DNA from: a virus
Lineage: Duplodnaviria > Caudoviricetes
Virus record (IMG/VR): IMGVR_UViG_3300011258_000154
Location: 1-50,366 of that record
Reading direction: 5' to 3' (one strand)
DNA length: 50,366 nucleotides
Under the pieces are notes generated by a model that saw only the letters and a program-made list of their open reading frames with translations, had not been told where the DNA came from and searched no databases. Made by a program: the position numbers and the translations under genes. Positions 20,680 to 50,366 of the stretch are shown here, one piece after another. How positions within the stretch are numbered: position 1 is the stretch's first letter; each line of letters opens with the position of its first letter.

Positions 20680-21186
20680 TTACTGGTCGGCAAACGCAGG
20701 TGCAGTTGCACCTGTAACAGTTCCAAAGATTTGATAGTTTGTGGAATCTTTACCAATAATTGTAACATCAAACCCAGCAGGAACATTTAATTGAATACTG
20801 CTATTTGAGTTACCATCAGAAAATACTGCGCTCACTTCATTATCAGTGTCTAAAAATGTTACTCCACCAACATAAAAATTAGTATTGCCTGGTGTGACAA
20901 TTATTGCATCTGTTGCATCAGCCGCACCACCTGCATAAACAAATCTAAAAACAGACCCAGCAATTGGTGCTGGTAATGTATAGGTGTTGTCTTGACCACC
21001 ATCTGGAACAAGCAAAACTCTTCCACTGTGAGTGGCGTTGGTTAAGGTTACGTTACCATCTGAAAGACTTACAGGGCCATCACCGATTGTAGTAACCTCT
21101 GTAATTGTTCCAGTAGTAGCATTTTTACTTATAGTTTTAAGGGTAGTTTCAGACCGGATTGGCCCTGAAAATGTTGTATTAGCCAT
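20680..21186 (-). CDS. capsid-associated (decoration/fibre) protein
   Basis: MANTTFSGPIRS N-terminus, TYTLPAP motif; directly downstream of the capsid gene. Confidence 0.6.
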   Translation of the reverse strand: MANTTFSGPIRSETTLKTISKNATTGTITEVTTIGDGPVSLSDGNVTLTNATHSGRVLLVPDGGQDNTYTLPAPIAGSVFRFVYAGGAADATDAIIVTPGNTNFYVGGVTFLDTDNEVSAVFSDGNSNSSIQLNVPAGFDVTIIGKDSTNYQIFGTVTGATAPAFADQ

Positions 21187-21242
21187 GTTTATCTCCTTAT
21201 CTTGGCAAACGTCAGCCGCACCATGCGACTGTTAAGGAATGA

Positions 21243-21274: not shown

Positions 21275-22183
21275 TTAAGCCGCTCCCTCAGAGCCGAAAA
21301 CGCCACGCCAGTCGGTGAAGCCAAAGCTGTAACGCTCACGCACCTTATAACGTACATTTCCAGTTTCGAAGTCGCCTTCCATGCCTTTTTTCATAGGCGA
21401 TCTTTGGAACATCTTCAGTCCATCTGGAACATCAGTTGTCACGAACCACGCATCAGAGTCTGTCAATCTACGCATAACGTGTGACCCACCTGGTAGGTAT
21501 CCGTTATTTTTAATTGCGTTGATTGCATTATTAGCTGTGTCGTTCTGAAGGTCTGATTGCAAGATACGATTTGCAGTAAAGGTGTAAGCAGTTGGAATTA
21601 CCAACATCTGACCTTGTGCCGCAATTCGAAGACCACGATCATCTTTCATATCAGCTATGTTAATAAGCACAGCTTCTAGTGAAGTCTCAGATAAATCAGC
21701 CGCTGTTCCCAAAACATTAGACTGGTTTCCAGATCGGGTTGGGTGTGATGCACTTAAAAGTGTAACTCCGTCACCGCCTGTGTAGCCTGCTGTTTGTGAG
21801 AAATTAAGGACGTTAGCCGCTTTTAGCTCCTTAGTGGAAGCCATAGAACGGGCTAGTGCCTTAGTGTAGCGTGAAGCAATCGAACCATACTGGCCATCTT
21901 CTTCAGCTTCTTCGCTGATTGCGAAAGCCAAAGCGATTGTTTCGTGCTGATAACGTGCAGTCCATTGCTGACCTGCATCGTCATATGAGATTGCGCTACC
22001 CTCATTTTTGGTAGGTGCATTTCCGAACCCTTGTAGCAAAACATCTTCTTCGAATGCTTTGTTACTTGTGTTGGAAGAGAACACCGCTGAGTATTCTGGT
22101 GGATAGCTGTCGTACTCAAGCCCAAAGAGGGTATTGAGTCCTGGTTCAAGCATTTTAGCAAAACTTGCTCTATTTAAAGCCAT
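21275..22183 (-). CDS. major capsid protein
   Basis: 302 aa; LEPGLNTLFGLEY, L.SASHP, DLSETSLE, LTDSDAWF, GDFETGNVRYKVRERYSFG..DWRG motifs; GGAGG RBS. Confidence 0.88.
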   Translation of the reverse strand: MALNRASFAKMLEPGLNTLFGLEYDSYPPEYSAVFSSNTSNKAFEEDVLLQGFGNAPTKNEGSAISYDDAGQQWTARYQHETIALAFAISEEAEEDGQYGSIASRYTKALARSMASTKELKAANVLNFSQTAGYTGGDGVTLLSASHPTRSGNQSNVLGTAADLSETSLEAVLINIADMKDDRGLRIAAQGQMLVIPTAYTFTANRILQSDLQNDTANNAINAIKNNGYLPGGSHVMRRLTDSDAWFVTTDVPDGLKMFQRSPMKKGMEGDFETGNVRYKVRERYSFGFTDWRGVFGSEGAA

Positions 22184-25113: not shown

Positions 25114-25129
25114 ATATTACATTTAGTAC

Positions 25130-25158
25130 TTGTAATTGCTTGTGTCTGCTATTATATG
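25130..25158 (+). promoter_or_regulatory. early promoter-like element P1
   Basis: TTGTAA-17-TATATG; near-identical to 27774-27802. Confidence 0.65.
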
Positions 25159-25200
25159 TTATGTATAGAGAGAAAAAACGAATCACTAGGGAGAAACAAA

Positions 25201-25578
25201 ATGGAAGATTATCAAAGAAAATTTTTAATGAATTACATACCATCTTATATTCTTTTAGATGAACTAACCAAAAAAATTAATCACCTTTGTGAGGGTGATG
25301 ATACGACTTTGGATATGATAAAGCCACTTCAAGCAAAAGAAATGGAATTGTATCGTGCTGTGGGCCAACAACGGAGAGATGCAGAAGAAAATGTAATAAA
25401 ATTTACTGAGATGTTTGATGAAAATGCCGTCGATATTGTTCGTATAAACGCTTACCATACATTTCGTGAACATGTAGGGCCATGCGAAGATTTTGACGAT
25501 CACATGGTAGAAGCATTTATAAATGCAATAATAAACAAAAGCGAAGATCATTGTAGAGATCTTTACAATCACGTTTGA
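25201..25578 (+). CDS. hypothetical early protein
   Basis: Start moved to the ATG following GGGAGAAACAAA; MEDYQRKFL... Confidence 0.75.
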   Translation: MEDYQRKFLMNYIPSYILLDELTKKINHLCEGDDTTLDMIKPLQAKEMELYRAVGQQRRDAEENVIKFTEMFDENAVDIVRINAYHTFREHVGPCEDFDDHMVEAFINAIINKSEDHCRDLYNHV

Positions 25579-25854: not shown

Positions 25855-25896
25855 GGGGAGCAAAAGCTCCCCACAATCCAAGGGAGAAACAAAATG
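25855..25896 (+). promoter_or_regulatory. hairpin-leader element H1
   Basis: GGGGAGC-AAAA-GCTCCCC-ACAATCCAA-GGGAGAAACAAA-ATG. Confidence 0.85.
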
Positions 25897-26169: not shown

Positions 26170-26175
26170 CAATGC

Positions 26176-26205
26176 TTGACACTACTAGTTATTGCTAGTA
26201 GTGTC
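26176..26205 (+). promoter_or_regulatory. early promoter-like element P5 within an 11-bp perfect inverted repeat
   Basis: TTGACA-17-TAGTGT; GACACTACTAG-ttattg-CTAGTAGTGTC at 26178-26205. Confidence 0.7.
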
Positions 26206-26237
26206 TTCATATTAACGAATCACTAGGGAGAAACAAA

Positions 26238-27098
26238 ATGGCGAAATTGGCAAATCAAGAAGTGGTTAAAGAATTAACCGAAAAAGCAATTATCAGCATC
26301 GAAGATGCTATTTCAAAGGGTCTAAGTTGGAAGCCTGAATTTAAAGGCACTGGTGGACTTGCGTATAATATGTTTACTGGCAATGTCCTAAGTGGCGGCA
26401 ATCAGTTGATTGCACTACTTTCTGGAGTTGACACTCGGTGGGCAACACCGAAAGCCCTCAAAGCTAAAGGCGTAGCTTGGGCGAAGGGATCGAAGACGAC
26501 TACGTTCTTATTCCCAATCACAATCACCAAAGATAGTAAAACTGGTGAAAAGCTAGAAAATCCGTTTATGTATTTCAAAACGTACCGAATGATTAATGGT
26601 GCGGATATTGTCGATTTACCTCAAGAAAAGTCTGATGAAGTCACTCTAGAAGAGAGACACACCAAGATCGATGAGCTTGTAGCTGTACTTGGGGCAGATG
26701 TCCGTGAGAGCAGTAGAGGTCAGTGTTTTTATAACTATAGAGATGACTACATCCACATGCCGTTTAAGAAGTATTTTGATTCTATCGATAGTTATTACTC
26801 TACTTTATTTCACGAGATCGGTCATTTTACTGGCCATAAGAGCCGCTTAAATAGGCTTGGTAAACAAGATAAATCTGAATACGCTTTCGAAGAGCTAGTG
26901 GCTGAGTTGTTCAGCATCTACGCCTGTAAGTTTTTTGATATATCTTTTGAGCCTACAGAAAATAATGCCACTTACTTATCAAGTTGGCTCAAGGCTCTAA
27001 AGCAAGATGCTTCATTCTTATGGAAGGCATCAAGTCGGGCAACAGACATATTAAACTATGTCTTGCAAGCCCAAGAAGAGCTTAAAAAAGCCGCTTAA
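26238..27098 (+). CDS. ardC: ArdC-like antirestriction protein (ssDNA-binding N-domain plus zincin-like metallopeptidase)
   Basis: N..TG...SG.N, RWAT, KGSK in the N-domain; DYIHMP..F..YYSTLFHEIGHFTGHKSRLNR..YAFEELVAEL..YLSSWLKAL. Confidence 0.92.
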   Translation: MAKLANQEVVKELTEKAIISIEDAISKGLSWKPEFKGTGGLAYNMFTGNVLSGGNQLIALLSGVDTRWATPKALKAKGVAWAKGSKTTTFLFPITITKDSKTGEKLENPFMYFKTYRMINGADIVDLPQEKSDEVTLEERHTKIDELVAVLGADVRESSRGQCFYNYRDDYIHMPFKKYFDSIDSYYSTLFHEIGHFTGHKSRLNRLGKQDKSEYAFEELVAELFSIYACKFFDISFEPTENNATYLSSWLKALKQDASFLWKASSRATDILNYVLQAQEELKKAA

Positions 27099-27106
27099 AT
27101 TTAACA

Positions 27107-27148
27107 GGGGAGCCTTGCGCTCCCCACAATCCAAGGGAGAAATAAATG
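27107..27148 (+). promoter_or_regulatory. hairpin-leader element H2
   Basis: GGGGAGC-CTTGC-GCTCCCC-ACAATCCAA-GGGAGAAATAA-ATG. Confidence 0.85.
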
Positions 27149-27508: not shown

Positions 27509-27549
27509 GGGGAGCCTCGCGCTCCCCACAATCGTTTGGAGAAATAATG
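27509..27549 (+). promoter_or_regulatory. hairpin-leader element H3
   Basis: GGGGAGC-CTCGC-GCTCCCC-ACAATCGTTT-GGAGAAATA-ATG. Confidence 0.85.
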
Positions 27550-27768: not shown

Positions 27769-27773
27769 AGTAC

Positions 27774-27802
27774 TTGTAATTGCTCGTATTTGCTATTATA
27801 TA
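27774..27802 (+). promoter_or_regulatory. early promoter-like element P2
   Basis: TTGTAA-17-TATATA (also TATAAT at 27801); near-identical to P1. Confidence 0.65.
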
Positions 27803-27830
27803 TAATATATAACCAAAAGGGAGAAAAAAA

Positions 27831-28391
27831 ATGGCATATGATGAAACATTAGGAAGTAAAGAGCGTTACTACGATGCAATCGATTATTATAGAATGGAAA
27901 ATGCACGAAAAGGCAAAATGAACAAATGGTTAAAAGATGTTCCTGATGCTCAAGAAATTCATGATTTTCTTATTGATAAAAATCATGGTTTTTTAGGTGA
28001 TCTTAACACTAGCATTTATAAGTATGGTAGCCTGACTGAAAATCAAACCAATGCTGTTCGTAAAATTATTGCTAACAATGTTAAACGCGCAGAGGCTCTA
28101 GAGGTAAAAAAAGCCGAAGAAGCTGAGGCAAGTGATTGGGTTGGCGTTGTAGGCGAACGTACTGAGTTCGACCTTACTGTTCAGCACGTTGCGACATTTG
28201 ATGGACATTACGGAACTGTTTACTTTAATATTTGTAAAGATGCAGATGACAACGTAGTTGTTTACAAAGGATCAAATGGTTGGGAAAAATCAACTAACGT
28301 AAAGTGTGTAGCAAAAATCAAAGAACACAGTGAGCGCGAAGGTGTAAAACAAACAATCATTCAGAGGCCAACAGTAAAGGAAGTAATATGA
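27831..28391 (+). CDS. early protein with C-terminal OB-fold-like domain
   Basis: YGSLTENQ..VGVVGER..GHYG...KD.DDNVVVY..KIKEHSEREGVKQTIIQRP; GGGAG leader; fold is an inference. Confidence 0.7.
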   Translation: MAYDETLGSKERYYDAIDYYRMENARKGKMNKWLKDVPDAQEIHDFLIDKNHGFLGDLNTSIYKYGSLTENQTNAVRKIIANNVKRAEALEVKKAEEAEASDWVGVVGERTEFDLTVQHVATFDGHYGTVYFNICKDADDNVVVYKGSNGWEKSTNVKCVAKIKEHSEREGVKQTIIQRPTVKEVI

Positions 28392-40254: not shown

Positions 40255-40282
40255 AAAAAAAAAGCCCCACCGAAGTGAGGCT
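40255..40282 (-). terminator. rho-independent terminator closing the minus-strand early island
   Basis: AGCCTCAC-TTCG-GTGGGGCT followed by a T run. Confidence 0.9.
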
Positions 40283-40290
40283 GATTTTGT

Positions 40291-40434
40291 TTAAATTTTA
40301 TCTATTTCTATTATGTGATAATCTAAACTGAACATTGATTTAATTTTTTGTTTACTGTTAGCAAGAATTTTTAAATATGTGTAACTACCTTGAGTGTTAT
40401 TTTTTTCCAAAAGTATTACTAAAAATTTTTTCAT
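40291..40434 (-). CDS. 47-aa hypothetical early protein (not in ORF track)
   Basis: MKKFLVILLEKNNTQGSYTYLKILANSKQKIKSMFSLDYHIIEIDKI*; own promoter P4, GGGAGAAACAAA leader and terminator. Confidence 0.75.
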   Translation of the reverse strand: MKKFLVILLEKNNTQGSYTYLKILANSKQKIKSMFSLDYHIIEIDKI

Positions 40435-40462
40435 TTTGTTTCTCCCTTGTTTCTATACATTA

Positions 40463-40491
40463 TAGATAATAGCAATTACTAGCACTTTCAA
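40463..40491 (-). promoter_or_regulatory. early promoter-like element P4
   Basis: TTGAAA-GTGCTAGTAATTGCTAT-TATCTA; near-identical to P3. Confidence 0.7.
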
Positions 40492-41081
40492 GTGCTATTA
40501 ACTATTTTTTTAAATTCTTTTAATCTTTTTGTATTCAGTTCAATTACATTAAAATTAAATGACACGATTGTTTTTCTAATATCATTTTTTACCATAGGCG
40601 CACGGTGTGGTGTCATTGCAGGAAACATTACAACATCTCCTTCTGAAACTTCTGGTATTTTTAGCGAGTTATCCCACAACTCTGTAGGTGGAGCATTTAC
40701 AGGGTATTCCAAGTAATAAACACCTGTGTAATTTTCACTATGTACATGCCAACCGTGAATCGAATCTTTTAAATATTGTTGATACCAAATTGCTTTCAAC
40801 GCAATACCATTGTAGCCAATAAAGTGTGACATCTCAGCTAACTTATCAATCAGAGTAGGTAGTAATTGTTTCACCCAAGGTCTATCAAAATCTGAATGGT
40901 TTTCCCAATCTAGTTTAGATATGTTATTTTCTCCACCATCCTTAAAATCAAAAAGGTTTGGATCTTTTTCCTGATTTATTTTTTCTAATATTAATGGTTT
41001 ATAAAAATCATGTTCGGATAATCTATCACGGATATAATGATTTTGTATTGGCAATTTAAACATTACGTTGCTTCCTTCCAA
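40488..41081 (-). CDS. 2OG-Fe(II) oxygenase-like protein
   Basis: WYQQY..HGWHVH..TGVYY..EGDVVMFPA..HRA..KTIVSFN. Confidence 0.8.
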   Translation of the reverse strand: MEGSNVMFKLPIQNHYIRDRLSEHDFYKPLILEKINQEKDPNLFDFKDGGENNISKLDWENHSDFDRPWVKQLLPTLIDKLAEMSHFIGYNGIALKAIWYQQYLKDSIHGWHVHSENYTGVYYLEYPVNAPPTELWDNSLKIPEVSEGDVVMFPAMTPHRAPMVKNDIRKTIVSFNFNVIELNTKRLKEFKKIVNST

Positions 41082-41210
41082 TCATTTTTTAATGTAGAGC
41101 TGACCATTAAGGTAAGCCAGTTCAATCATGGTACGTTCAAGATCGGTTAATTTTTGACCTTTAAGTATTTTACACTCTTCAATAACTTCTTTTAATGTAT
41201 GTTTACTCAT
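41082..41210 (-). CDS. 42-aa hypothetical protein
   Basis: Start moved to MSKHTLKE after AAAGGAGG. Confidence 0.65.
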   Translation of the reverse strand: MSKHTLKEVIEECKILKGQKLTDLERTMIELAYLNGQLYIKK

Positions 41211-41220
41211 AATCCCTCCT

Positions 41221-41412
41221 TTATAATTTAATAAAATTAAGTGTACTTCCAAGTTCGTAATGAAAGTATTCATGCCCGACTTCTAGGCTCGACAAGGTAT
41301 CGATAACGTCGTCGGTAAGATCCCACGCATCAGATTCTTTGATTTCATCTAATGCAACAACCTCTGGCTTTGCATCTTCGTAACCTTCCAACCATTTCAC
41401 TAAGAATTTCAT
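41221..41412 (-). CDS. hypothetical acidic protein
   Basis: 63 aa; ATGA overlap with the upstream ORF. Confidence 0.7.
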   Translation of the reverse strand: MKFLVKWLEGYEDAKPEVVALDEIKESDAWDLTDDVIDTLSSLEVGHEYFHYELGSTLNFIKL

Positions 41413-41570
41413 TTCATATGCCTTTCCATTTGATTAAGGGTAAAAAGTAAATTCCACAATTTAGATTGCAGATAACTATTGTAGTCTGAATCACCCGACA
41501 ATCTTTCTGTTAATTCTACTATAAACTCTTTTTGTTCATTGAGCTTTTCTTTAGTGGTCATATTTTCCAT
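41409..41570 (-). CDS. 53-aa hypothetical early protein (not in ORF track)
   Basis: MENMTTKEKLNEQKEFIVELTERL...ERHMK*; follows the H4 leader. Confidence 0.75.
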   Translation of the reverse strand: MENMTTKEKLNEQKEFIVELTERLSGDSDYNSYLQSKLWNLLFTLNQMERHMK

Positions 41571-41609
41571 TTTGTTTCTCCCTTGATTGTGGGGAGCGCG
41601 AAGCTCCCC
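41568..41609 (-). promoter_or_regulatory. hairpin-leader element H4
   Basis: Minus strand GGGGAGC-TTCGC-GCTCCCC-ACAATCAA-GGGAGAAACAAA-ATG. Confidence 0.85.
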
Positions 41610-41616
41610 TGATTAA

Positions 41617-42006
41617 TTAAAAATAAGATGCGATTGCTTCTGGAACATCTGATTCGTTTAAACGACCTGATGATAAAGTTAATGCGACTGGCGCAATCTC
41701 TTCAGCTTCAAAATCAACCCAAGCATTTGAACCATAACGTGGATCTGTTGATGACCAATGATCTGATGTTAAACCTTCAGAACCTTCTGTCTTAACAAGA
41801 TCAGATACACAATTAATAAAACGATCTGCACTATCTTTATCGTCTGAACCAAAAGTATCTAGCACCCAACGACGACCTGACGTAGCTTCAGCAAGCACTT
41901 GCCACACTGTAACATAATTAGGCCGACCATCTTCGTCACAACCGTTAGCTTCATAAACCCAATCTCTAGCATAAAAAACTAGACCTTTTGCTTTAGTGAT
42001 TTCCAT
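41617..42006 (-). CDS. hypothetical early protein
   Basis: Start moved to MEITKAK after GGGAGAAACAAA; AE..SGRRW..HW...DPRYGS.AW. Confidence 0.75.
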   Translation of the reverse strand: MEITKAKGLVFYARDWVYEANGCDEDGRPNYVTVWQVLAEATSGRRWVLDTFGSDDKDSADRFINCVSDLVKTEGSEGLTSDHWSSTDPRYGSNAWVDFEAEEIAPVALTLSSGRLNESDVPEAIASYF

Positions 42007-42038
42007 TTTGTTTCTCCCTTGTTTGTTTCTATATATTA

Positions 42039-42067
42039 CAGATAATAGCAATTACTAGCATTGTCAA
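42039..42067 (-). promoter_or_regulatory. early promoter-like element P3
   Basis: TTGACA-ATGCTAGTAATTGCTAT-TATCTG. Confidence 0.7.
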
Positions 42068-42076
42068 GTGCTGAAC

Positions 42077-42114
42077 AAAAAAAAAGACCCCCAACTCAAT
42101 TTGAGTCAGGGGTC
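42077..42114 (-). terminator. rho-independent terminator of the replication operon / candidate sRNA
   Basis: GACCCCTGACTCAA-A-TTGAGTTGGGGGTC followed by T9. Confidence 0.88.
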
Positions 42115-42172
42115 AGTCACCCCCTAAGTTTTGGGAGAAACAAGCGTCATAGAGGCGACCAGACGCAGGGGG
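42077..42172 (-). ncRNA. candidate 3'UTR-derived antisense sRNA against the shared early-gene leader
   Basis: CCCCCT-[GCGTC..GACGC]-TTGTTTCTCCCAAAACTT-AGGGGG then terminator; unpaired segment is the reverse complement of GGGAGAAACAA. Confidence 0.55.
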
Positions 42173-42427
42173 TTAACTCACTTGATGGGCAAGGCATAAA
42201 TATGCGGCTCCATCCGTACTTGAATCTTTGCTTGGTTTATACGCTAATCTGCTAATTTTTAAAAGCGTCATCATTACACAGGCATCGTGTGGTGTTATTT
42301 CTACATCAAGGTATGCGCTCCACAGTTTCGCCAGTCTCTTAAAACTTTCTTCGGGTGGGCCGTATGAACTCTGACGATCTTCATCCACCAACTTCTGCGC
42401 TTCCTTTAATAATTCACTTGCCTTCAT
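42173..42427 (-). CDS. DUF6378-like small helical phage protein
   Basis: LLKEA..LV..DRQ..YGPPEESF.R.AKLWSAYL..MTLLKISR..D..DGAAY; start moved to ATG 42427 (GAGG RBS, ATGA overlap). Confidence 0.75.
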   Translation of the reverse strand: MKASELLKEAQKLVDEDRQSSYGPPEESFKRLAKLWSAYLDVEITPHDACVMMTLLKISRLAYKPSKDSSTDGAAYLCLAHQVS

Positions 42428-42630
42428 TTTCTTTTCCTCTTGTAGTAATCGTCTGGTAGGTGAGCGGCACAGAACCACATTCCAAATTGATTATCCATTA
42501 ATGAAACATCCAAACCGAAGGATGCATCAGTGTCGCCACACACTGAACAGGGATGCCAAAAGATCCTCGACCCTTCTGTACCTTTGACCTTCCTAAAGCG
42601 TGGCCTAATATCTGTCGTCTTACTTCCCAT
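42424..42630 (-). CDS. small zinc-binding protein
   Basis: HPCSVCG..ASFG..WFCAAH; GAGGA RBS. Confidence 0.7.
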   Translation of the reverse strand: MGSKTTDIRPRFRKVKGTEGSRIFWHPCSVCGDTDASFGLDVSLMDNQFGMWFCAAHLPDDYYKRKRK

Positions 42631-42652
42631 ATAATCCTCTTTTTTCGGTTCC

Positions 42653-42794
42653 CGTATGAAATAGGAATTATACTATATATAATTCCTATTCCTACGCCTC
42701 GTATGAACTAGCGTAGGAAAAGCGTATGAAACGTATGAAACGCATTCGTAAGTCATTGTTTTTATTACATTCGTGTTTTCATACGTTTTCATAC
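42653..42794. repeat. iteron/palindrome cluster A, probable replication origin
   Basis: CGTATGAA x4, CGTAGGAA variant, two inverted TTTTCATAC, 13-bp inverted repeat at 42660-42690, IHF-like site at 42749-42761; directly downstream of the primase-helicase. Confidence 0.8.
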
Positions 42795-44654
42795 TTTGCC
42801 CTCTTTCGATAACAGCCAGATTTGACCTTGGTTCATACAGATAAAATCACCTGAAATCATAGCCTCCAAAGTCTGCTTCCACGCGCTTCTATGGTTCGAT
42901 CCAGTGAACTTCCCAGTGAAGTGTTCACGCACATCTTCCTCCTGAATGACCCAGTAAGTATGCGGCTCTGGCCACCCAGTTCCTGCTGGGTTTGGTTGCC
43001 CAACTTTATCTGACTTGAGTTGATTAAAGCACTCCAAGAACAGCCTCTGGTTCTTACCTTTGGGTTGCTTCTTCTTCGCATCCTCCAGTTCCTCAGCGTC
43101 AACCTTCTGAATGATCACAGTCGTAATGTCATCGCCATCTGGATCAACACCAAGAACTGAGACGTTCAGCCTGAATGAGTATGCCGCACCACCCTCTAAA
43201 TCTCTTTGCTTCGTGCAGAGTGCTGTTCTGATACCACTCTCATTCTGAACGTCCAGTTCTATCTCAGTGTCGAGTGCCGCCTTCAATGCACTCGAACCAC
43301 GCGCTCCCTTAGCGGCATCTTTGCCTGTATGATGCACTATCATAAGGTGAGCGTTCGAGATGTTCCTGAGTATATCACAGTTCTTTATGAATTGCGACAT
43401 ATCTTCCGATGTATTTTCATTAGCCCCTGCCATTGCTCTGGACAGTGTATCCACAACAATCAGGGCAATCTCGCCCTTCTCATTGCGAATCTCATTGCAT
43501 AAGTTCTCCAAGGTGGGCAGATCAACGTCACTGTTAAACATATCGACAGGACTTGGCCTGACGGCTAACAGTGCGTTCTCATCTCCGTAATGCTCTTTCA
43601 GGGCGTAAACTCTATTCCTGAAGCTATTGCCACCCTCTGTGGCCATGTACAGCACAACACCCTCGACAACTTTGTTTCCGTTCCACTCTCTGCCAGTGGC
43701 AATGTGCCAAGACATATCTAGGGCTAGGAAAGACTTACCAGTGTTGGAGGCTCCGTAAAGACAGCTCAGTTGATTTGCACCGAGCCAGTTCTTTATCAGG
43801 TAATTGTTTGTGAGGATTGGCTCTGCATCGTCAGCCCAGAATACACTATCCTGAAATCTTCTTGGCGTTAGAAACTTCTGCACAACTTCTGCACCTCGCG
43901 CAACCCACAGATCATTGTAATCCATATTCTTCGGTGGGAGCATGTAGGTCGTGCCGTGATCTTCCTTCGCCTTCTCAGCTCCCTTGATCCCTGCCTCATC
44001 ATTATCGGCACACACAATAAACTCTGCGTGTGGCTTGGCGATCTTCAGGGATTTAATAACTTCCGTAATGTTGTTGGCGTTTAACGCAAACACGGCAGGC
44101 TTGCCTGTGGCCTCACTGATAGACGCGGCAGTCGCCCAACCTTCAGCAATATACGCCAAGTCTGTAATCGTTCCACCAAGGACGCTGAAGTTACCAACGA
44201 CTGGCATGGCCTTCGAGAACTTCTTGTTTCCCTCAGAACTAATCGTCTGAGTTCCGACCTTCTTTCCCATGTGATTGTTAATTGGAATGACGAGGTTACC
44301 ACCATCGATCAGTGCGTTATGCTGTGCGATCTTCTTCTTGGCCAAGTAAGGATGTTGAGTTGAGACACTCGGCCACTCTATTTCCTTAGTGGTAAAACCG
44401 TTTTCCCTCTCTGGCCACAATCCCTGTGAACGTAAAATATTCGTAATCTCCTTGAAGTCATTGCACTGTCTGCACTGAACCTTCACATCTCCGTTATACT
44501 CATTAATCCAGAACCTATCCTTGCCACCGCAATTTGGACACGCCCCATGATACTCTCCCTGTGTAACCTGCTTCAAGTTTAAACTCTGAACGATCGTACT
44601 CGACCACTCTGACCAACGCGCTGATTTGTATTTTCCTTTACTATCGTCTATCAT
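42789..44654 (-). CDS. primase-helicase (Zn finger + TOPRIM + RepA/AAA_25 helicase + C-terminal domain)
   Basis: GACPNCGGKDRFWI..CRQC, AEGWATA, ADND..G, YGASNTGKSF Walker A, IVVDTLSR Walker B, VHHTGKD..RGSS; ATG 44654 with GAGG preferred over TTG 44672. Confidence 0.92.
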   Translation of the reverse strand: MIDDSKGKYKSARWSEWSSTIVQSLNLKQVTQGEYHGACPNCGGKDRFWINEYNGDVKVQCRQCNDFKEITNILRSQGLWPERENGFTTKEIEWPSVSTQHPYLAKKKIAQHNALIDGGNLVIPINNHMGKKVGTQTISSEGNKKFSKAMPVVGNFSVLGGTITDLAYIAEGWATAASISEATGKPAVFALNANNITEVIKSLKIAKPHAEFIVCADNDEAGIKGAEKAKEDHGTTYMLPPKNMDYNDLWVARGAEVVQKFLTPRRFQDSVFWADDAEPILTNNYLIKNWLGANQLSCLYGASNTGKSFLALDMSWHIATGREWNGNKVVEGVVLYMATEGGNSFRNRVYALKEHYGDENALLAVRPSPVDMFNSDVDLPTLENLCNEIRNEKGEIALIVVDTLSRAMAGANENTSEDMSQFIKNCDILRNISNAHLMIVHHTGKDAAKGARGSSALKAALDTEIELDVQNESGIRTALCTKQRDLEGGAAYSFRLNVSVLGVDPDGDDITTVIIQKVDAEELEDAKKKQPKGKNQRLFLECFNQLKSDKVGQPNPAGTGWPEPHTYWVIQEEDVREHFTGKFTGSNHRSAWKQTLEAMISGDFICMNQGQIWLLSKEGKV

Positions 44655-44684
44655 AATATTGCCGCCTCGCAAAAAAATGGTGGT

Positions 44685-44738: not shown

Positions 44739-45350
44739 TTAAAATGGAATCTCATCATCATCTAATAAGTCTTCCACTGGGGCAGGAGCCGATACAAATG
44801 TACTATCCGTTGTGTACCCATCCACAACGCTAAATGGATCAGCCGCCACCTGTTCAGCCGCAAGTTCCGTAACTTGAACAGCGCGTATCCTCAGGGATAC
44901 ACCGCTCTCCGTTCCCGTATTGTAGGGAACGACAGTCACGGCAATGTTTGCCTTTGAACCTGACGTTAACCTGAAATCACTTGGAAAAGGATTTCTCTTG
45001 GCATCAACCTGTTTAGGTTGCTGAGTTTTATCAGAGCCGTACTTGGCCTTGATACGGCACTTGCCGTGATACTCAGTCGTTCCGTCATCTGTCTTGACAG
45101 TCTTGGCAGGTAGACGTTGCGGTTCCGCAGGCCACTTACCCTTTCCCATCGAAGCCGCATTCTTATACGCCTCCTTACAGATTCTTCCTAACGTAACTGC
45201 CTCGTCTTTCTCCATGACGAAACTTGTTTCATAGCAAGCTCCCTCATCATCCCACTGACATGGAACGGACTTATTCTCACCACTGTCAAAGCGGTAAGGT
45301 TGGTTAAGTCTTGGGTAAAGAACAGAGACATTATTTATTATATGTTGCAT
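44739..45350 (-). CDS. ssb: single-stranded DNA-binding protein (T7 gp2.5-like type)
   Basis: YPRL, VDAKR, LTSGS..N, GVSLRIRAVQV.EL, acidic DDDEIPF tail; start moved to ATG 45350 (AAAGGAG RBS). Confidence 0.8.
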   Translation of the reverse strand: MQHIINNVSVLYPRLNQPYRFDSGENKSVPCQWDDEGACYETSFVMEKDEAVTLGRICKEAYKNAASMGKGKWPAEPQRLPAKTVKTDDGTTEYHGKCRIKAKYGSDKTQQPKQVDAKRNPFPSDFRLTSGSKANIAVTVVPYNTGTESGVSLRIRAVQVTELAAEQVAADPFSVVDGYTTDSTFVSAPAPVEDLLDDDEIPF

Positions 45351-45424
45351 GGTGCAACTCCTTTCGGTTTTAATGTGTAGCACCCCTACACTGGGATAAG
45401 GTCAGAAGCTCCGTGACTTCCGCT

Positions 45425-46201
45425 TTAATTTTCCATCCACTTAGGTAAGTCGATGGTATTTACTTCAGGCCAGCCTGTTGAATAATCTTGAGTAACATCA
45501 GCCTCCCGTATTGTCTTTAACGTGTTTATCATTCGCATGTGAGCGTGGTTTAAATATTCGTCCGACAATGTGTGAACTTGCACTATAAACGGATTTGTCT
45601 TCTCAATGCAAATGAAAAAGAAATCTTTTACTGTCACGCCCTCTAAGTGCATAACATGCTTGTAAAATGCCGCCTGAATATCATACCCATAGTCACGCAC
45701 TGCCTTGGCAAAACCTTTGGGCGATGCATCCTGACATGTCTTAATATCAAACATTATGCGCTTGTGTGGCAGTAATCCATCTGGCCGACACTTCAAATCT
45801 AGCTCACATACCTTGTCGTGAACAAAGAAACTGGCCTCAGTAATGAGTAGACTATCCGTCAACATCTCATTTACATTCTCAGTAAACATAGCAGACTGGC
45901 TCATGTTCTCGGCCAAGTGATATTCCTTTTTGGGAAGTAGGATCTTGCCAGCAAGATCAGCGGCATCTTTAAGATCTTTCCAGTCCTTACCTCTGCGAGT
46001 TTCTGGGCCTTCAATAACTAAGTTCTTTTCAGGCTCAAGTAGCATGGCGTGGACTGCACTTCCTAAATCAAATGCGGCACTCTCTTTTCGCACCGCATTC
46101 TTCCAGTGGTAAATTGTCGATGTTGCAACGGCCTTTACATCGCTAGATGAATAAGAAGCATGTTCGTGATACTCCTTGTTGCTCAGATCTTTATCTATCA
46201 T
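45425..46201 (-). CDS. RecE/exonuclease VIII-like PD-(D/E)xK nuclease (DUF3799 type)
   Basis: YH..SSS..K, LGSAVHAMLLEPE, KCRPD, DIKT..DAS..F..YGYDIQAAFY, EKT.P. Confidence 0.9.
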   Translation of the reverse strand: MIDKDLSNKEYHEHASYSSSDVKAVATSTIYHWKNAVRKESAAFDLGSAVHAMLLEPEKNLVIEGPETRRGKDWKDLKDAADLAGKILLPKKEYHLAENMSQSAMFTENVNEMLTDSLLITEASFFVHDKVCELDLKCRPDGLLPHKRIMFDIKTCQDASPKGFAKAVRDYGYDIQAAFYKHVMHLEGVTVKDFFFICIEKTNPFIVQVHTLSDEYLNHAHMRMINTLKTIREADVTQDYSTGWPEVNTIDLPKWMEN

Positions 46202-46508: not shown

Positions 46509-47066
46509 TTATATTAAATTAAATGAGAAAGATATTCTCTCTTCATCTTTGTTCATATTAGGCCTTACTGAGTGCATTAACCAACTAGGAAATAAATATA
46601 ATACACCCTCCACCGCTGGCATCCACCAAAATAAAGATGTGTAATTATTATTCGGTCTACTTAAATCCGATTGCTGTAGTACATGATAAGCTGGGCTGTG
46701 AAACTCAATCTCGCCACAATTCTCAGGAGTTTTAACATAATAAACCCCCGATACTTTTGAATGAGGATGGCAGTGCAATTGATTAAAGTCTTTATATGAA
46801 TTTATATTACACCATATATTAGAAAATCCTACTTCACCGTAAGCAATTTTTTCTGAATATAAATTTGCATGTGAAGAAATTTCCTCCATAAGTTCTTTTA
46901 TATTCTCGTCATTCTTATCTAAATTCTCAGAATGAAATCCACCTCGGTTAGAAATGCTAACGCCATCTTGTTTCTGCTTAATATCAAAACAATATTTTTT
47001 TAACTCTTCATTGTTTAATGGGAGTTGCTCTGCGTAAATACCAATTTTGAATAAGTCATGTATCAT
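46509..47066 (-). CDS. 2OG-Fe(II) oxygenase (TIGR02466-like)
   Basis: SNRGGFHS, WCNIN, HCHPHSKVSGVYYV, FPSWLMHSV.PN, RISFSFN. Confidence 0.9.
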   Translation of the reverse strand: MIHDLFKIGIYAEQLPLNNEELKKYCFDIKQKQDGVSISNRGGFHSENLDKNDENIKELMEEISSHANLYSEKIAYGEVGFSNIWCNINSYKDFNQLHCHPHSKVSGVYYVKTPENCGEIEFHSPAYHVLQQSDLSRPNNNYTSLFWWMPAVEGVLYLFPSWLMHSVRPNMNKDEERISFSFNLI

Positions 47067-47923: not shown

Positions 47924-48963
47924 TATCTGTTACCTATTTTCTTTTTTGTATATGGGATCGCACCTATAACTTTAATTTTAGGAACCTTTCCAGTGTAATG
48001 CTCTACATCTTTTTGATACAAAAGTTCATTGGAGGCATAGGCATTCCACGCTTTAATGAGCAACTCATTTCTCATTGATGGATCAAATTTATATTTTGTT
48101 TCAAAGACAAGTTTCATTTCACTCTTAATCTTATTAATAAGTCTCTTAACAGGAAAATTTGGGTTCCAGTTTTGAGGATGTTCATTTGATAGATCATTAA
48201 AAAAACTTTGTATTGCCGCAGAGCTTTGTGAATTTCCTGCCTTTAAAACACTAAATGCTAAACATCTTGCGCCTGCCCACTGCCCTCCATTAACAATTAG
48301 ATTTTTTGATGTATTCTTAGTTATCCTAATAGCTTCTTGAAGAGCGTTCTTTTGAGTTTCAGACAATCCAAACAAGTAAAACAATTTTGCAAAATACTGA
48401 GCATCATGTGTGCTTGCTCTAGTCGTTAAAGCAATATACTTTTCGTCTACCTCTTTCCAATCATTCGGATTGTTTAAACCAAACCACTTTCTGTGTAGTG
48501 CAATCATGGGAGATATTTTCGTAGGGTTTGCAACACCCATAGCATAAAATATATCCTTATCTTTTTTTAGCATACCTGTATCTATTGTTGAAAATGCCTC
48601 TGGGTCTATACCTGCAACAAAGTGCTGATTAGGAATAGATATTCCCGTATTGGCAATAGCATGAAGTCTGTGTTGACCATCTTGCAAACTTCCAAACCAA
48701 TCAAATCTAATTGGATCTCCGTTAACTGCAAAATGATTATTCTTTATTTTTAATTCGTATTCTTTAACGTGAAGAGGATCTAGTGGCCTATTAAGTTTAG
48801 ACTCAGGGTGAGGTTTCCGATTTAAAAGATACCTTGCGCCCTCTGGCGTTAAACTAGGAACAAAATAAACATCATATGTTTCACCACTAGATATTTTTCT
48901 CATCATCTCTGGGTCTAAGCCGCCCGTCCACTCATTAATATTTTTTGTCTTTAAGTTATTCAT
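47923..48963 (-). CDS. DGQHR/ParB-like domain protein
   Basis: LTPE.A..LL..NRPL..NGDPIRFD..LQDGQHRLHAI..F.TIDTG. Confidence 0.8.
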   Translation of the reverse strand: MNNLKTKNINEWTGGLDPEMMRKISSGETYDVYFVPSLTPEGARYLLNRKPHPESKLNRPLDPLHVKEYELKIKNNHFAVNGDPIRFDWFGSLQDGQHRLHAIANTGISIPNQHFVAGIDPEAFSTIDTGMLKKDKDIFYAMGVANPTKISPMIALHRKWFGLNNPNDWKEVDEKYIALTTRASTHDAQYFAKLFYLFGLSETQKNALQEAIRITKNTSKNLIVNGGQWAGARCLAFSVLKAGNSQSSAAIQSFFNDLSNEHPQNWNPNFPVKRLINKIKSEMKLVFETKYKFDPSMRNELLIKAWNAYASNELLYQKDVEHYTGKVPKIKVIGAIPYTKKKIGNR

Positions 48964-50366
48964 TATTCTTCCTCCATAAAAATTGACATTGGATCTTTGG
49001 TTACAATATCTGCGATAGACTTCTTTGTTCGCAGTGCTTGGATTATTTTACTGTCGATTGACTTGCGGCACTCAATATCAATGTAGGTCACATTTTTCTC
49101 TGTGCCTATTCTGTGCGCCCTGTCTTCTGACTGCATACGCTCCTCCAAGTTAAAGCTGTTCGAATAGTAAATCGCATACTCAGCCTTGTTGAGCGTAATA
49201 CCAATTCCACCTGCCTGTGGATTTGATATAAAATACTTTACATCGGGGTCATTCTGAAATTTATGTACGGCAAGCTCTCTGTCGTCATTAGAGACATCTC
49301 CGTGGTAACTTACCGCCTCAGAGCCTAATAGCTTCTCTATGGCTCTTAAATCGGCTTTAAACCGCGCCCAGATGATTGTCTTACCACTGATATTGCCTAG
49401 CACCTCTCTCAATGCCTCAATGCGTGGGTTTACTTTATCAATCGGAATAGATGAATCTTCGGTTGGAAACCAACCACATAATATCTGTTGTAGCCTGAGA
49501 AGCCGTGTAATCGCCTCTGGAACCTCTATCATGTTTCCCTCAAGCTCTGCGACAAAAGATTTCTTTAGCTCTTTGTAGAGCTTGCTCTGAGCCGCAGACA
49601 TCTCAACGTAGTGGCGTTGGTATATCTTCTCAGGCAAATCCAAGCACTCACTCTTCAGAACTCTGAAGCTGTACTTGCCAAGACGCTCGGTCAGTTCATC
49701 CATATTTTGGTAGCCGACAATCTGCTTGTTCTTAAATCCACCCATCACACAGTACCTCTCCTTAAACTTGTAGAGCGATTTCGCCTCAAGAATATCAGGG
49801 TTAAGAAATTTAAATTGGGCGAAGACATCCTCAGCACCTTTGGTCACTGGCGTACCTGTTAAGATTCTCTTGGCTATCACATTCGGATGTTTGCCAAACT
49901 TCGTAATCATCTTGGTGCGCTTCGAACTCGGTGTCTTTATACGACTACTCTCATCGACAACCATTAGCACCTTGCTCTTCTTCAGGGCTGTCATCATATG
50001 TTTCTGAGCCGTTACAGATGTAAATGCCTCCACGTTAAATGCGAAGATCTTTAATCCGTCATACTCCAGAACTTCATTGAACTCATCGATTTGCTTCTTC
50101 TTCATTTGAGATGAATAGAATGTCGCCCTGTACTCACAGGCCATGTGAGTTGGAACCTCATTGTTGACCCAATTCCTGTGGACACCATTCGGGGCAATAA
50201 CAATCACTGTGTCGATTGCCTTGTTCTCGTAAAGATATGCGGCAGTGTCGATTATGACTTTAGTCTTGCCAGTGCCTTGCTCCATGAGAAGTGCAAAGCC
50301 TTTCCTCTTCTTGCTAAGATCAAATGCCTTCATTTGGTGGGCGAATGGTTTTGTTTTAAACTTCAT
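48963..50366 (-). CDS. SNF2-family helicase
   Basis: MEQGTGKT (I), VVDESSRIK (II), ILTGTP (III), IIWARF, GITL, QSEDRAHRIG (VI). Confidence 0.95.
   Translation of the reverse strand: MKFKTKPFAHQMKAFDLSKKRKGFALLMEQGTGKTKVIIDTAAYLYENKAIDTVIVIAPNGVHRNWVNNEVPTHMACEYRATFYSSQMKKKQIDEFNEVLEYDGLKIFAFNVEAFTSVTAQKHMMTALKKSKVLMVVDESSRIKTPSSKRTKMITKFGKHPNVIAKRILTGTPVTKGAEDVFAQFKFLNPDILEAKSLYKFKERYCVMGGFKNKQIVGYQNMDELTERLGKYSFRVLKSECLDLPEKIYQRHYVEMSAAQSKLYKELKKSFVAELEGNMIEVPEAITRLLRLQQILCGWFPTEDSSIPIDKVNPRIEALREVLGNISGKTIIWARFKADLRAIEKLLGSEAVSYHGDVSNDDRELAVHKFQNDPDVKYFISNPQAGGIGITLNKAEYAIYYSNSFNLEERMQSEDRAHRIGTEKNVTYIDIECRKSIDSKIIQALRTKKSIADIVTKDPMSIFMEEE

Follow-up and report, generated by a model that had tools for sequence, protein, structure and literature searches.

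In the 50,366-bp virus record IMGVR_UViG_3300011258_000154, which was analysed over its whole length and is called the window here, the minus strand at 42172-42077 encodes a structured RNA element carrying an anti-Shine-Dalgarno (anti-SD) motif exactly complementary to a Shine-Dalgarno (SD) leader repeated in front of the phage's small genes. The element occupies the 3' untranslated region (3'UTR) of the last gene of the replication module, which encodes a DUF6378 protein. Comparison with related sequences indicates that the element is real and conserved. We propose, tentatively and at a little less than an even chance, that this conserved 3'UTR module pairs with the leaders and occludes their SD sequences, acting in trans with a by-product in cis. 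The predicted base pairing with the leader SDs is a well motivated and likely mechanism, one-to-many action in trans is possible, and trans action is preferred only narrowly to a purely cis role. By analogy with known systems, the architecture is a variant of anti-SD small RNAs (sRNAs) and cis sequestration devices, here fitted to a leader that the phage repeats and set in a phage 3'UTR.

The letters and coordinates given for the element in an earlier reading made from the letters by themselves (the sequence-only reading) proved exact, and the stop codon of the upstream gene lies at 42173-42175. The RNA comprises an outer stem (P1), a hairpin (P2), the anti-SD motif UUGUUUCUCCC, which is the reverse complement of the leader sequence GGGAGAAACAA, and an intrinsic terminator ending in a run of U residues (Table 1). 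Its fold has a z score of -5.91, and 0 of 200 shuffled sequences were equally stable. Folding without the terminator gave P1 and P2 as the sequence-only reading had drawn them, but not its fully unpaired 11-mer: GUUU pairs with AAAC in a small third stem (P3) and only CUCCCA is looped out. The probability that CUCCC is unpaired is at least 0.9 in this fold, in agreement with the accessible loop that had been predicted, whereas the complete RNA gave a lower value (see below). Two other features were rejected at this site, namely a bidirectional terminator, since the plus strand has no U-tract after the stem, and a plus-strand open reading frame (ORF) at 42061-42255 (64 aa, TTG start), which begins upstream of the motif and is without support.

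The exact sequence GGGAGAAACAA is found seven times in the window, as the six SD leaders listed in the sequence-only reading (25189+, 25882+, 26226+, 40446-, 41582- and 42018-) and as the inverted copy at 42133-42143(+). Dinucleotide shuffles gave a mean of 0.07 copies per genome on both strands, and 0 of 100 reached seven; with up to one mismatch there are 10 copies against 1.49 expected. Variant leaders are present, as had been reported, at four further starts (25594, 27146, 27547 and 27831). The 8-mer GGGAGAAA occurs nine times on both strands, in eight leaders and in the inverted copy. Each of the eight precedes an ATG at a spacer of 6-7 that opens an ORF of at least 47 aa in one of two islands, and the inverted copy alone lacks a start codon, which confirms what the sequence-only reading had seen. 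The name ardC that it gave to one of the genes behind these leaders also fits the domains found.

The shared SD-to-ATG stretch is the 3' end of longer repeats of 45-70 nt, which are of two kinds. The promoter type contains the 22-nt cassette CTTGWMWWTGCTNGTNWTTGCT, with five copies against 0.24 expected, and the hairpin type contains GGGGAGC-N4-5-GCTCCCC-ACAATC(C)AA, with four copies against 0 expected. The SD is predicted to be open in both, and the 5'UTRs of the promoter type are predicted to be unstructured (0 kcal/mol). One of the promoter cassettes follows the anti-SD motif and precedes the leader of the first island gene, and transcripts starting there would therefore lack the motif. The claim of a promoter after the element's terminator stands in part: a promoter-consensus scan scores none there, yet the cassette repeated five times in the window is present. 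TTGACA and TAATAT are 23 nt apart in it, a spacing that is not canonical.

Conservation was assessed in relatives obtained by a primase-helicase search, which gave 25 IMG/VR loci, 3 of them ending ahead of the site and 22 reaching it. These relatives were grouped by primase identity into A (99%), B (88-92%) and C (72-74%), and a profile search yielded a group D of nine loci with primases 53-54% identical. In 22 of the 22 relatives reaching the site (T/C/G)TGTTTCTCCC is present with UGUUUCUCCC kept throughout, a retention of the loop on which the sequence-only reading had depended. The motif lies about 650 nt past the primase gene (805 in L016), after the DUF6378 stop codon and before the terminator, and it varies only at its first base, which is then unpaired. 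When groups A and C are compared in a gapped alignment the flanks are identical at 14 of 30 and 11 of 19 positions and the 10-mer at 10 of 10. The stems around the motif are built from CCCCCU/AGGGGG (A), CCCCUCU/AGGGGGG or CCCCUC/GAGGGG (B) and GCUCAG/CUGAGC (C) for P1, from GCGUC/GACGC (A, B) and, at the same place, GAUAUCA/UGAUAUC (C) for P2, and from GUUU/AAAC (A, B) and GUGUUU/AAGACAC (C) for P3. From these different stems the same P1/P2/P3 junction is predicted in all three groups, with CUCCC unpaired at a probability of at least 0.9. In group D the DUF6378 homologue has a 3'UTR of about 215 nt, which contains at the corresponding position a 10-11-bp hairpin whose 12-nt loop, UUUCCUCCCUGU, is invariant in nine of nine loci; both partners have changed in 3 of the 11 stem pairs, and the share of paired cells is 90.9%, compared with 33-47% in slid controls. 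For 8 of 8 segments the sense strand gives a more stable fold than the antisense strand, and G.U pairs occur in the sense folds. These comparisons support the motif as a selected feature of the gene-sense (minus) strand within a conserved fold. No anti-SD hairpin was found in the more distant clades that have a DUF6378 gene after the primase (L046-L048, L054, L056), and neither the element nor the repeated leader in the stretches of phages CRP-901 (L100, 50,000 of 53,013 bases) and CRP-821 (L208, 7,889 bases).

The same data bear on whether the element is a functionless relic of an inverted promoter- or hairpin-leader cassette, or a chance match, which we consider very improbable. Cassettes do recombine, and L001 has a homologue of 25201-25578 behind the element-adjacent promoter. 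The plus strand of the window also reads a hairpin GGGGT-CAGTC-ACCCC, 9 nt and GGGAGAAACAA, in the layout of the hairpin cassettes, and the opposite strand of group C (L016, L017, L018) reads GGGAGAAACAC-ATG and then a 4-codon ORF, which is absent from A and B and probably fortuitous. Against a relic, the plus strand has no start codon in groups A and B, the covarying stems and G.U pairs point to the minus strand, and the motif has been kept in 22 of 22 and 9 of 9 loci while its flanks diverged. This retention, the diverged flanks and the minus-strand bias of the folds led us to reject a decayed plus-strand cassette leader.

An RNA site for a protein or polymerase, such as nut/put-like antitermination, a processing site or a 3' stabiliser, might likewise take the form of a conserved hairpin whose loop is invariant and which stands immediately ahead of a terminator between the replication genes and downstream genes on the same strand; the anti-SD likeness would then be incidental. 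We regard such a site as quite unlikely. In all four clades the motif is an anti-SD, and chance alone would give 0.07 occurrences per genome of such a 10-11-nt complement to the leader that this genome repeats. An N- or Q-like protein was not identified, although no systematic search for one was made.

Duplexes of the exposed stretch were computed against 1032 candidate starts in six frames, and the island leaders ranked best. The six exact leaders reach -18.4 kcal/mol and the four variants range from -16.5 to -13.0 kcal/mol, compared with a median over all sites of -5.2 kcal/mol. This is the ranking that the sequence-only reading had foreseen, yet it is partly circular, because exact-match leaders necessarily score best. 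Pairing with the first downstream leader was then counted in 22 genomes, the window and the 21 relatives whose contig continues that far. There are 11 Watson-Crick pairs in four of these genomes and 10 in three, and a further 11 genomes have 10 pairs including one G.U, with the leader GGGAGAAAUAA.

In the mechanism that we propose, the module would form the 3' end of a long transcription unit from the SNF2-helicase gene to the DUF6378 gene, and its three-way junction would present the anti-SD (UGUUU-CUCCC) just upstream of a strong intrinsic terminator. The anti-SD would pair with the GGGAGAAA(C/U)A leader, occlude the SD and so block translation initiation. In trans this 3' end, either as part of the operon mRNA or as a fragment protected by the terminator, would act on about ten leader-bearing island mRNAs and, in close relatives, also on the operon's own first gene, while on transcripts reading through the terminator the same pairing would silence the first island gene in cis. 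From this model we infer accumulation of the RNA, pairing in the cell, repression of translation and its timing. CpxQ, SroC and CisR are examples of 3'UTR-derived sRNAs; as in these, the putative phage regulator would share the terminator of a protein operon and has its conserved seed upstream of that terminator. The candidate seed is conserved, complementary to the initiation regions of its proposed targets and accessible except in the 96-nt fold.

The module also resembles the alphaR8 sRNAs (RF00519, suhB/MmgR; Caulobacter SisA-D). In the available part of PMC12559287, the defining traits of alphaR8 RNAs are a weak hairpin followed by UUUCCUCCCU in single-stranded form, and a Rho-independent terminator. 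SisA uses this 10-mer to repress many mRNAs, and the known members described there do so by pairing upstream of start codons. Element and class have in common a weak hairpin, an exposed UUUC(C)UCCC(U/A)A(G/A)AC with its anti-SD signature, a Rho-independent terminator with a U-tail and, probably, Alphaproteobacteria as host class; in the window the P2 hairpin at 42144-42166 lies upstream of the motif, and the terminator at 42086-42114 with its U9 downstream. Unlike the class, the element is phage-borne, forms part of a protein operon's 3'UTR, where no separate promoter is predicted for it, and has the phage's own repeated leader as proposed target. Its motif is placed in a hairpin loop inside an outer stem. 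The window and groups A-C read UUUCUCCC(A/U), with one C of the 10-mer missing, and group D has the exact UUUCCUCCCU but in a hairpin loop. The missing C renders the motif complementary to GGGAGAAA instead of GGGAGGAAA. A trans or module-like role is favoured by this layout, by the roseobacter hosts of the nearest named phages, and by RF00519-like RNAs in the family of a Paracoccaceae genome with a matching primase-helicase: of the 61 genomes of that family 31 carry them, and 6 exceed the cut-off.

This likeness could also be that of a captured or convergent alphaR8-type sRNA acting mainly on host mRNAs, for takeover or metabolic rewiring, with phage-leader pairing as a secondary matter. Such a host-directed mimic is unlikely in our view, although the exact 10-mer inside the group D loop speaks for it, as do the probable roseobacter hosts and a sub-threshold RF00519 match that spans the whole model. 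The alphaR8 matches of the Rhodobacter family read GGGCG-UUUCCUCCCUAGACUUGGG, to be compared with GCUUG-UUUCUCCCAAAACUUAGGG in the window and UUUCUCCCUAAGAC in group C. The scores are, however, far under the thresholds, and the lack of one C in groups A-C makes the motif an exact match to the phage leader and not to the host consensus.

Several results weigh against a trans-acting anti-SD RNA. Some concern the class just described, which supplies, in alphaR8/MmgR/SisA, described analogues of an architecture for which the sequence-only reading knew no case. In a permissive Rfam search the element aligned end to end with RF00519 (hairpin, UU-U.CUCCC-A.ACUU, terminator and U-run), but its 17.5 bits fail the gathering score of 41, and RF00519 was not listed for group C (L017) or, at E up to 10, for group D (L036:8714-8945). 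Sub-threshold Rfam matches are not memberships, and ctRNA_pGA1 (24.6 bits against 45), suhB (17.5 against 41) and anti-hemB (22.3 against 49.5) were all set aside. A model (R1) built from the alphaR8 matches of the likely host family, with an imperfect RNAalifold structure, found no match in the window at E up to 10 and gave 10.4 bits (E = 1.9) on L005. The best R1 matches are other terminators, and the UUUCCCU stretch of those found in relatives is absent from the window. By analogy the element works like an alphaR8 RNA but is not a member of the class, because groups A, C and D stay below threshold and the host-family model misses the element.

Other results on the same side concern the RNA and its partners. 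In the window's full 96-nt RNA the probability of CUCCC being unpaired is about 0.4; in the minimum free energy structure of this RNA alone CUCCC pairs with the downstream GGGGG, and the outer stem of the sequence-only reading is not formed. A scan found no promoter-like minus-strand site for an independent sRNA within 42173-42300. Any anti-SD pairs with strong SDs, hence part of the complementarity is trivial. The conserved SD-ATG spacer, which the sequence-only reading had attributed to the sRNA, belongs to the repeated promoter and hairpin cassettes that mark gene replacements, and for this reason these explain it without any sRNA. The first leader keeps only 6-7 contiguous pairs in 4 of the 22 genomes (L005, L008, L009 and L013), and the compensatory changes between loop and leader sought in relatives were not found: leader position 9 changes from C to U opposite an unchanged G, a change tolerated as G.U, and position 11 is unpaired in groups B and C. 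Group D has no shared leader complementary to its loop, only eight unique GGGAG leaders without a common extension. The evidence for an RNA consists of Logan contigs from four metatranscriptome runs labelled marine or seawater, which can show neither ends nor strand nor level. Most of 42300-43150 and other parts are uncovered, a gap that proves nothing; two further runs, X8 and X9, contain 0.96 and 0.94 of the sampled words.

Finally, RNAs folded from the stop codon to past the first island start, as read-through would produce, pair the motif with the leader at a probability of 0.72-1.00 in all nine loci that were folded, which come from groups A, B and C. In the window the motif pairs with the leader at 42004-42018 at a probability of 0.81. 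These folds would suit an insulator working in cis only, in which the anti-SD acts solely on read-through RNA and the first island gene is translated only from its own promoter. In the window, as in every group A-C locus listed, the promoter cassette does separate the two partners, and all 21 relatives with a contig that extends past the terminator have retained the order terminator, promoter, leader. One contig from a marine RNA library (run X2, record 11) covers 42004-42176 and thus bridges the terminator, though it may derive from DNA. We nevertheless regard a cis-only insulator as doubtful. Trans action is preferred because the terminator, with 13 pairs and U9, is very strong and little read-through is expected; because the P1/P3 display structure, for which a cis anti-SD has no need and which a cis helix would have to melt, is conserved; because group D retains the hairpin without a complementary downstream leader; and because the module resembles a known class of trans-acting sRNAs. 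The motif is moreover unchanged in the four genomes with weakened first-leader pairing, and cis action would cover one leader per transcript at most.

It is also conceivable, if somewhat doubtful, that a captured or retuned alphaR8-like RNA in the operon 3'UTR of a lytic roseophage times an early-to-middle switch in trans. Such an RNA would perhaps have been captured from an alphaproteobacterial host family and have lost one C, giving the exact match to the phage GGGAGAAACA leader. It would act as a transcription-length timer, because it would be complete only once RNA polymerase reaches the end of the early/replication operon of about 8 kb. From that point translation of some ten scattered early genes would cease, as would that of the operon's first gene in close relatives, which would make the RNA a self-targeting one-to-many phage sRNA driving the early-to-middle switch. 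Scans from 50366 down to 42173 listed no terminator comparable to that at 42086-42114. The window record begins exactly at the ATG of the SNF2 helicase gene (position 50366), and in both group A relatives that reach further (L001 and L002) this ATG is preceded by a promoter cassette and an identical GGGAGAAACAAAATG leader; group B has a different sequence there. On these grounds the element is probably the 3' end of a unit of about 8 kb under the same promoter class, and it could feed back on its own unit with a built-in delay. L001 and L002 extend about 1 kb more upstream (L001:1000-1062 is the promoter cassette with leader), and nothing at the window's other end corresponds to this extra stretch, for which reason the window record may be incomplete.

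Several other systems share parts of this design. The alpha-r14/NfeR1 and AbcR1/2 sRNAs carry anti-SD CCUCCUCCC loops, invariant motifs within variable hairpins, and occlude ribosome-binding sites (RBSs) one-to-many, according to the available part of PMC10746234; they resemble the element in the unpaired hairpin anti-SD and in an ultraconserved motif set against varying stems. According to the same part of that source they have three redundant motifs, chromosomal genes, own promoters and host targets, whereas the phage element has a single motif of different sequence. A second likeness is to cis devices of phage genomes. In T4, lysozyme (e), soc, gene 49 and I-TevI are subject to transcript-specific RBS sequestration by an upstream anti-SD on the long transcript, while a promoter situated between anti-SD and SD yields a short transcript that can be translated. 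The window has a corresponding order of anti-SD (42133-42143), cassette (42047-42068) and SD (42014-42018), with a putative promoter between the partners, and the long transcript is predicted to fold with the SD paired in 9 of 9 loci; unlike T4, the partners are some 115 nt apart, with a strong terminator in this interval, and the anti-SD lies in a conserved independent fold. The c4 antisense RNA of P1/P7 acts in immunity on a single target operon and arises by processing of the transcript's 5' part. As far as the partly available source goes, it resembles the element in being a phage RNA co-transcribed upstream of its target, with loops that pair around the RBS; the proposed targets of the phage element are, in contrast, about ten dispersed leaders.

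The repeated leaders themselves recall the PeSL cassettes of T4-like phages, which the available parts of PMC2839356 and PMC4122927 describe as repeated composite regulatory cassettes that border small variable genes and mark replacements. Here five promoter and four hairpin cassettes border island genes that differ between the window and L001-L003, although unlike PeSL they include the SD-to-ATG leader and are of two types. PeSL cassettes would explain repeated leaders, not the inverted anti-SD copy. The cassettes flank gene replacements between near-identical relatives: in L001-L003, whose flanks are 96-98% identical, a homologue of the plus-island gene 25201-25578 takes the place of gene 41617-42006, and 40299-41217, including a 2OG-Fe(II) oxygenase gene (40488-41081), is missing. 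In one RNA-library contig (X1, record 1) 19 other letters stand in place of 40289-40496, and the island is hyperplastic. The promoter cassettes hold the internal repeat TGCTAGT-AATTGCTA, and a common repressor might use the conserved stretch between their -35 and -10 positions as its operator. Each hairpin cassette stands directly after a stop codon, 8-9 nt ahead of the leader, with an SD-like GGGGAG in its 5' arm and an anti-SD-like CUCCCC in its 3' arm. The opposite strand of two of the four (25872-25855 and 27125-27107) is terminator-like in the scan, and these cassettes could be processing sites, stabilisers or blocks to antisense transcription.

Coordinates of the features are collected in Table 1. 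The two 2OG-Fe(II) oxygenase genes (PF13759) are separate, one at 46509-47066(-) in the replication unit and one at 40488-41081(-) in the island. The closest named phages are the Roseobacter phages CRP-901 and CRP-902 (terL 79.6% identical, structural module common), and the primase relatives among named phages are other CRP roseophages; the runs that hold parts of the stretch, from RNA libraries and others, are labelled marine or seawater. For these reasons the host is probably a marine alphaproteobacterium, likely a roseobacter. A primase-helicase scan of genome contigs gave only three distant relatives, the best full-contig match being a Paracoccaceae genome at 39% identity, which is a weak host hint at most. 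A blastn search of 41400-43000 against the phage collection gave no match among named relatives.

Table 1. Features of the element, of the neighbouring genes and of the repeated leaders and cassettes, in window positions.
Feature	Position	Strand	Remarks
SNF2-family helicase gene	48963-50366	-	start of replication unit
Several unknown genes and 2OG-Fe(II) oxygenase gene	between SNF2 helicase and exonuclease genes	-	
Exonuclease gene	45425-46201	-	
gp2.5-like single-stranded DNA-binding protein gene	44739-45383	-	
Primase-helicase gene	42789-44672	-	
68-aa ORF	between primase-helicase and DUF6378 genes	-	
DUF6378 protein gene	42173-42478, or from ATG at 42427	-	last replication-module gene; Pfam PF19905, E = 2.5e-26
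Anti-SD element	42077-42172	-	3'UTR of DUF6378 gene; three-way junction with anti-SD motif, then intrinsic terminator and U9
P1 5' arm, CCCCCU	42167-42172	-	pairs with AGGGGG at 42120-42125; pre-terminator fold
P2 hairpin, GCGUC...GACGC	42144-42166	-	in every fold computed
Anti-SD motif UUGUUUCUCCC	42133-42143	-	exact reverse complement of leader GGGAGAAACAA
Conserved motif core UGUUUCUCCC	42133-42142	-	
P3 mini-hairpin	42128-42141	-	GUUU (42138-42141) with AAAC (42128-42131), loop CUCCCA (42132-42137)
AGGGGG	42120-42125	-	P1 3' arm, or alternative CUCCC partner
Intrinsic terminator	42077-42114	-	stem 42086-42114 (13 pairs, 7 GC, loop 3), U9 at 42077-42085
Promoter cassette CTTGACAATGCTAGTAATTGCT	42047-42068	-	one of five copies, between anti-SD motif and leader; putative promoter
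Leader GGGAGAAACAAAATG	42004-42018	-	first island gene (41617-42006, 129 aa, no family found); SD 42014-42018
Small-gene island	42006-40291	-	downstream of element
Leader copy	41568-41582	-	after hairpin cassette GGGGAGC-N5-GCTCCCC (41591-41609)
Leader copy	40432-40446	-	after promoter cassette 40471-40492
Terminator	40263-40282	-	closes small-gene island, ahead of terS, terL and portal
Second small-gene island	25.2-28.7 kb	+	with ArdC-like gene
Leader copy	25189-25203	+	first plus-strand island gene; promoter cassette 25129-25150
Leader copy	25882-25896	+	after hairpin cassette 25855-25872
Leader copy	26226-26240	+	ArdC-like gene; promoter cassette 26175-26196
ArdC-like gene	26238-27098	+	ArdcN plus MPTase-PolyVal domains
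Variant leader GGGAGAAATAAATG	27135-27148	+	after hairpin cassette 27107-27125; duplex -16.5 kcal/mol
Variant leader GGGAGAAAAAAAATG	27819-27833	+	after promoter cassette 27773-27794; duplex -13.0 kcal/mol
Promoter cassettes	25129-25150, 26175-26196, 27773-27794	+	
Promoter cassettes	40471-40492, 42047-42068	-	
Hairpin cassettes	25855-25872, 27107-27125, 27509-27527	+	ahead of plus-strand genes
Hairpin cassette	41591-41609	-	ahead of minus-strand gene

Other structured RNAs were seen in the window and elsewhere. At Rfam gathering thresholds the sole family passing in the window is Mu-gpT-DE (RF03012), at 21184-21237(-) with 62.4 bits (gathering score 49), just downstream of a 302-aa ORF (21275-22183) that probably encodes the major head protein. 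A tRNA scan of the window found none, and in 11 other contigs only tRNAs pass the gathering thresholds. In group D a long perfect hairpin lies between the primase and DUF6378 genes (L030:2900-2985, L031:2384-2469); it gives spurious sub-threshold microRNA matches and is perhaps a further structured element. In CRP-821 the intergenic sequence that follows the primase/helicase (L208:4496-4670) is full of TTGTATAAA/TTTATACA repeats and may be a replication origin. Scanning viral contigs for the pattern GTTTCTCCC...GGTCTTTTT gave 103 stretches, of which the unrelated ones are, by rough arithmetic, about the yield of chance. Two of the unrelated contigs are leads only, as they passed no Rfam threshold and the scan yield is near chance: L116:582-712 has a hairpin GUCGGG/CCCGAC with the loop UGUUUCUCCCUU, a terminator and a gene with the leader AAGGGAGA, and L128:880-1000 has an alphaR8-like layout of hairpin, GUUUCUCCCUAGACU and terminator.

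To our knowledge temporal control in phages is exerted mostly by proteins, that is by sigma factors, antiterminators and repressors such as RegA, and the phage antisense RNAs known to us act on no more than one or two targets. Neither the available part of a phage-sRNA review nor limited literature searches gave a case in which a single phage RNA targets a leader that many phage genes have in common. The proposal lends itself to direct testing, as related roseophages and their hosts are in culture and the seed and its targets are short and easily mutated. If only the cis action holds, the element would be a further T4-type device in an unusual long-range form. If the RNA acts in trans on the leaders, phages of marine Alphaproteobacteria would apply a host-type anti-SD sRNA design to their own genes, repeated leader cassettes would double as a common regulatory handle, and a 3'UTR could encode a delay timer.

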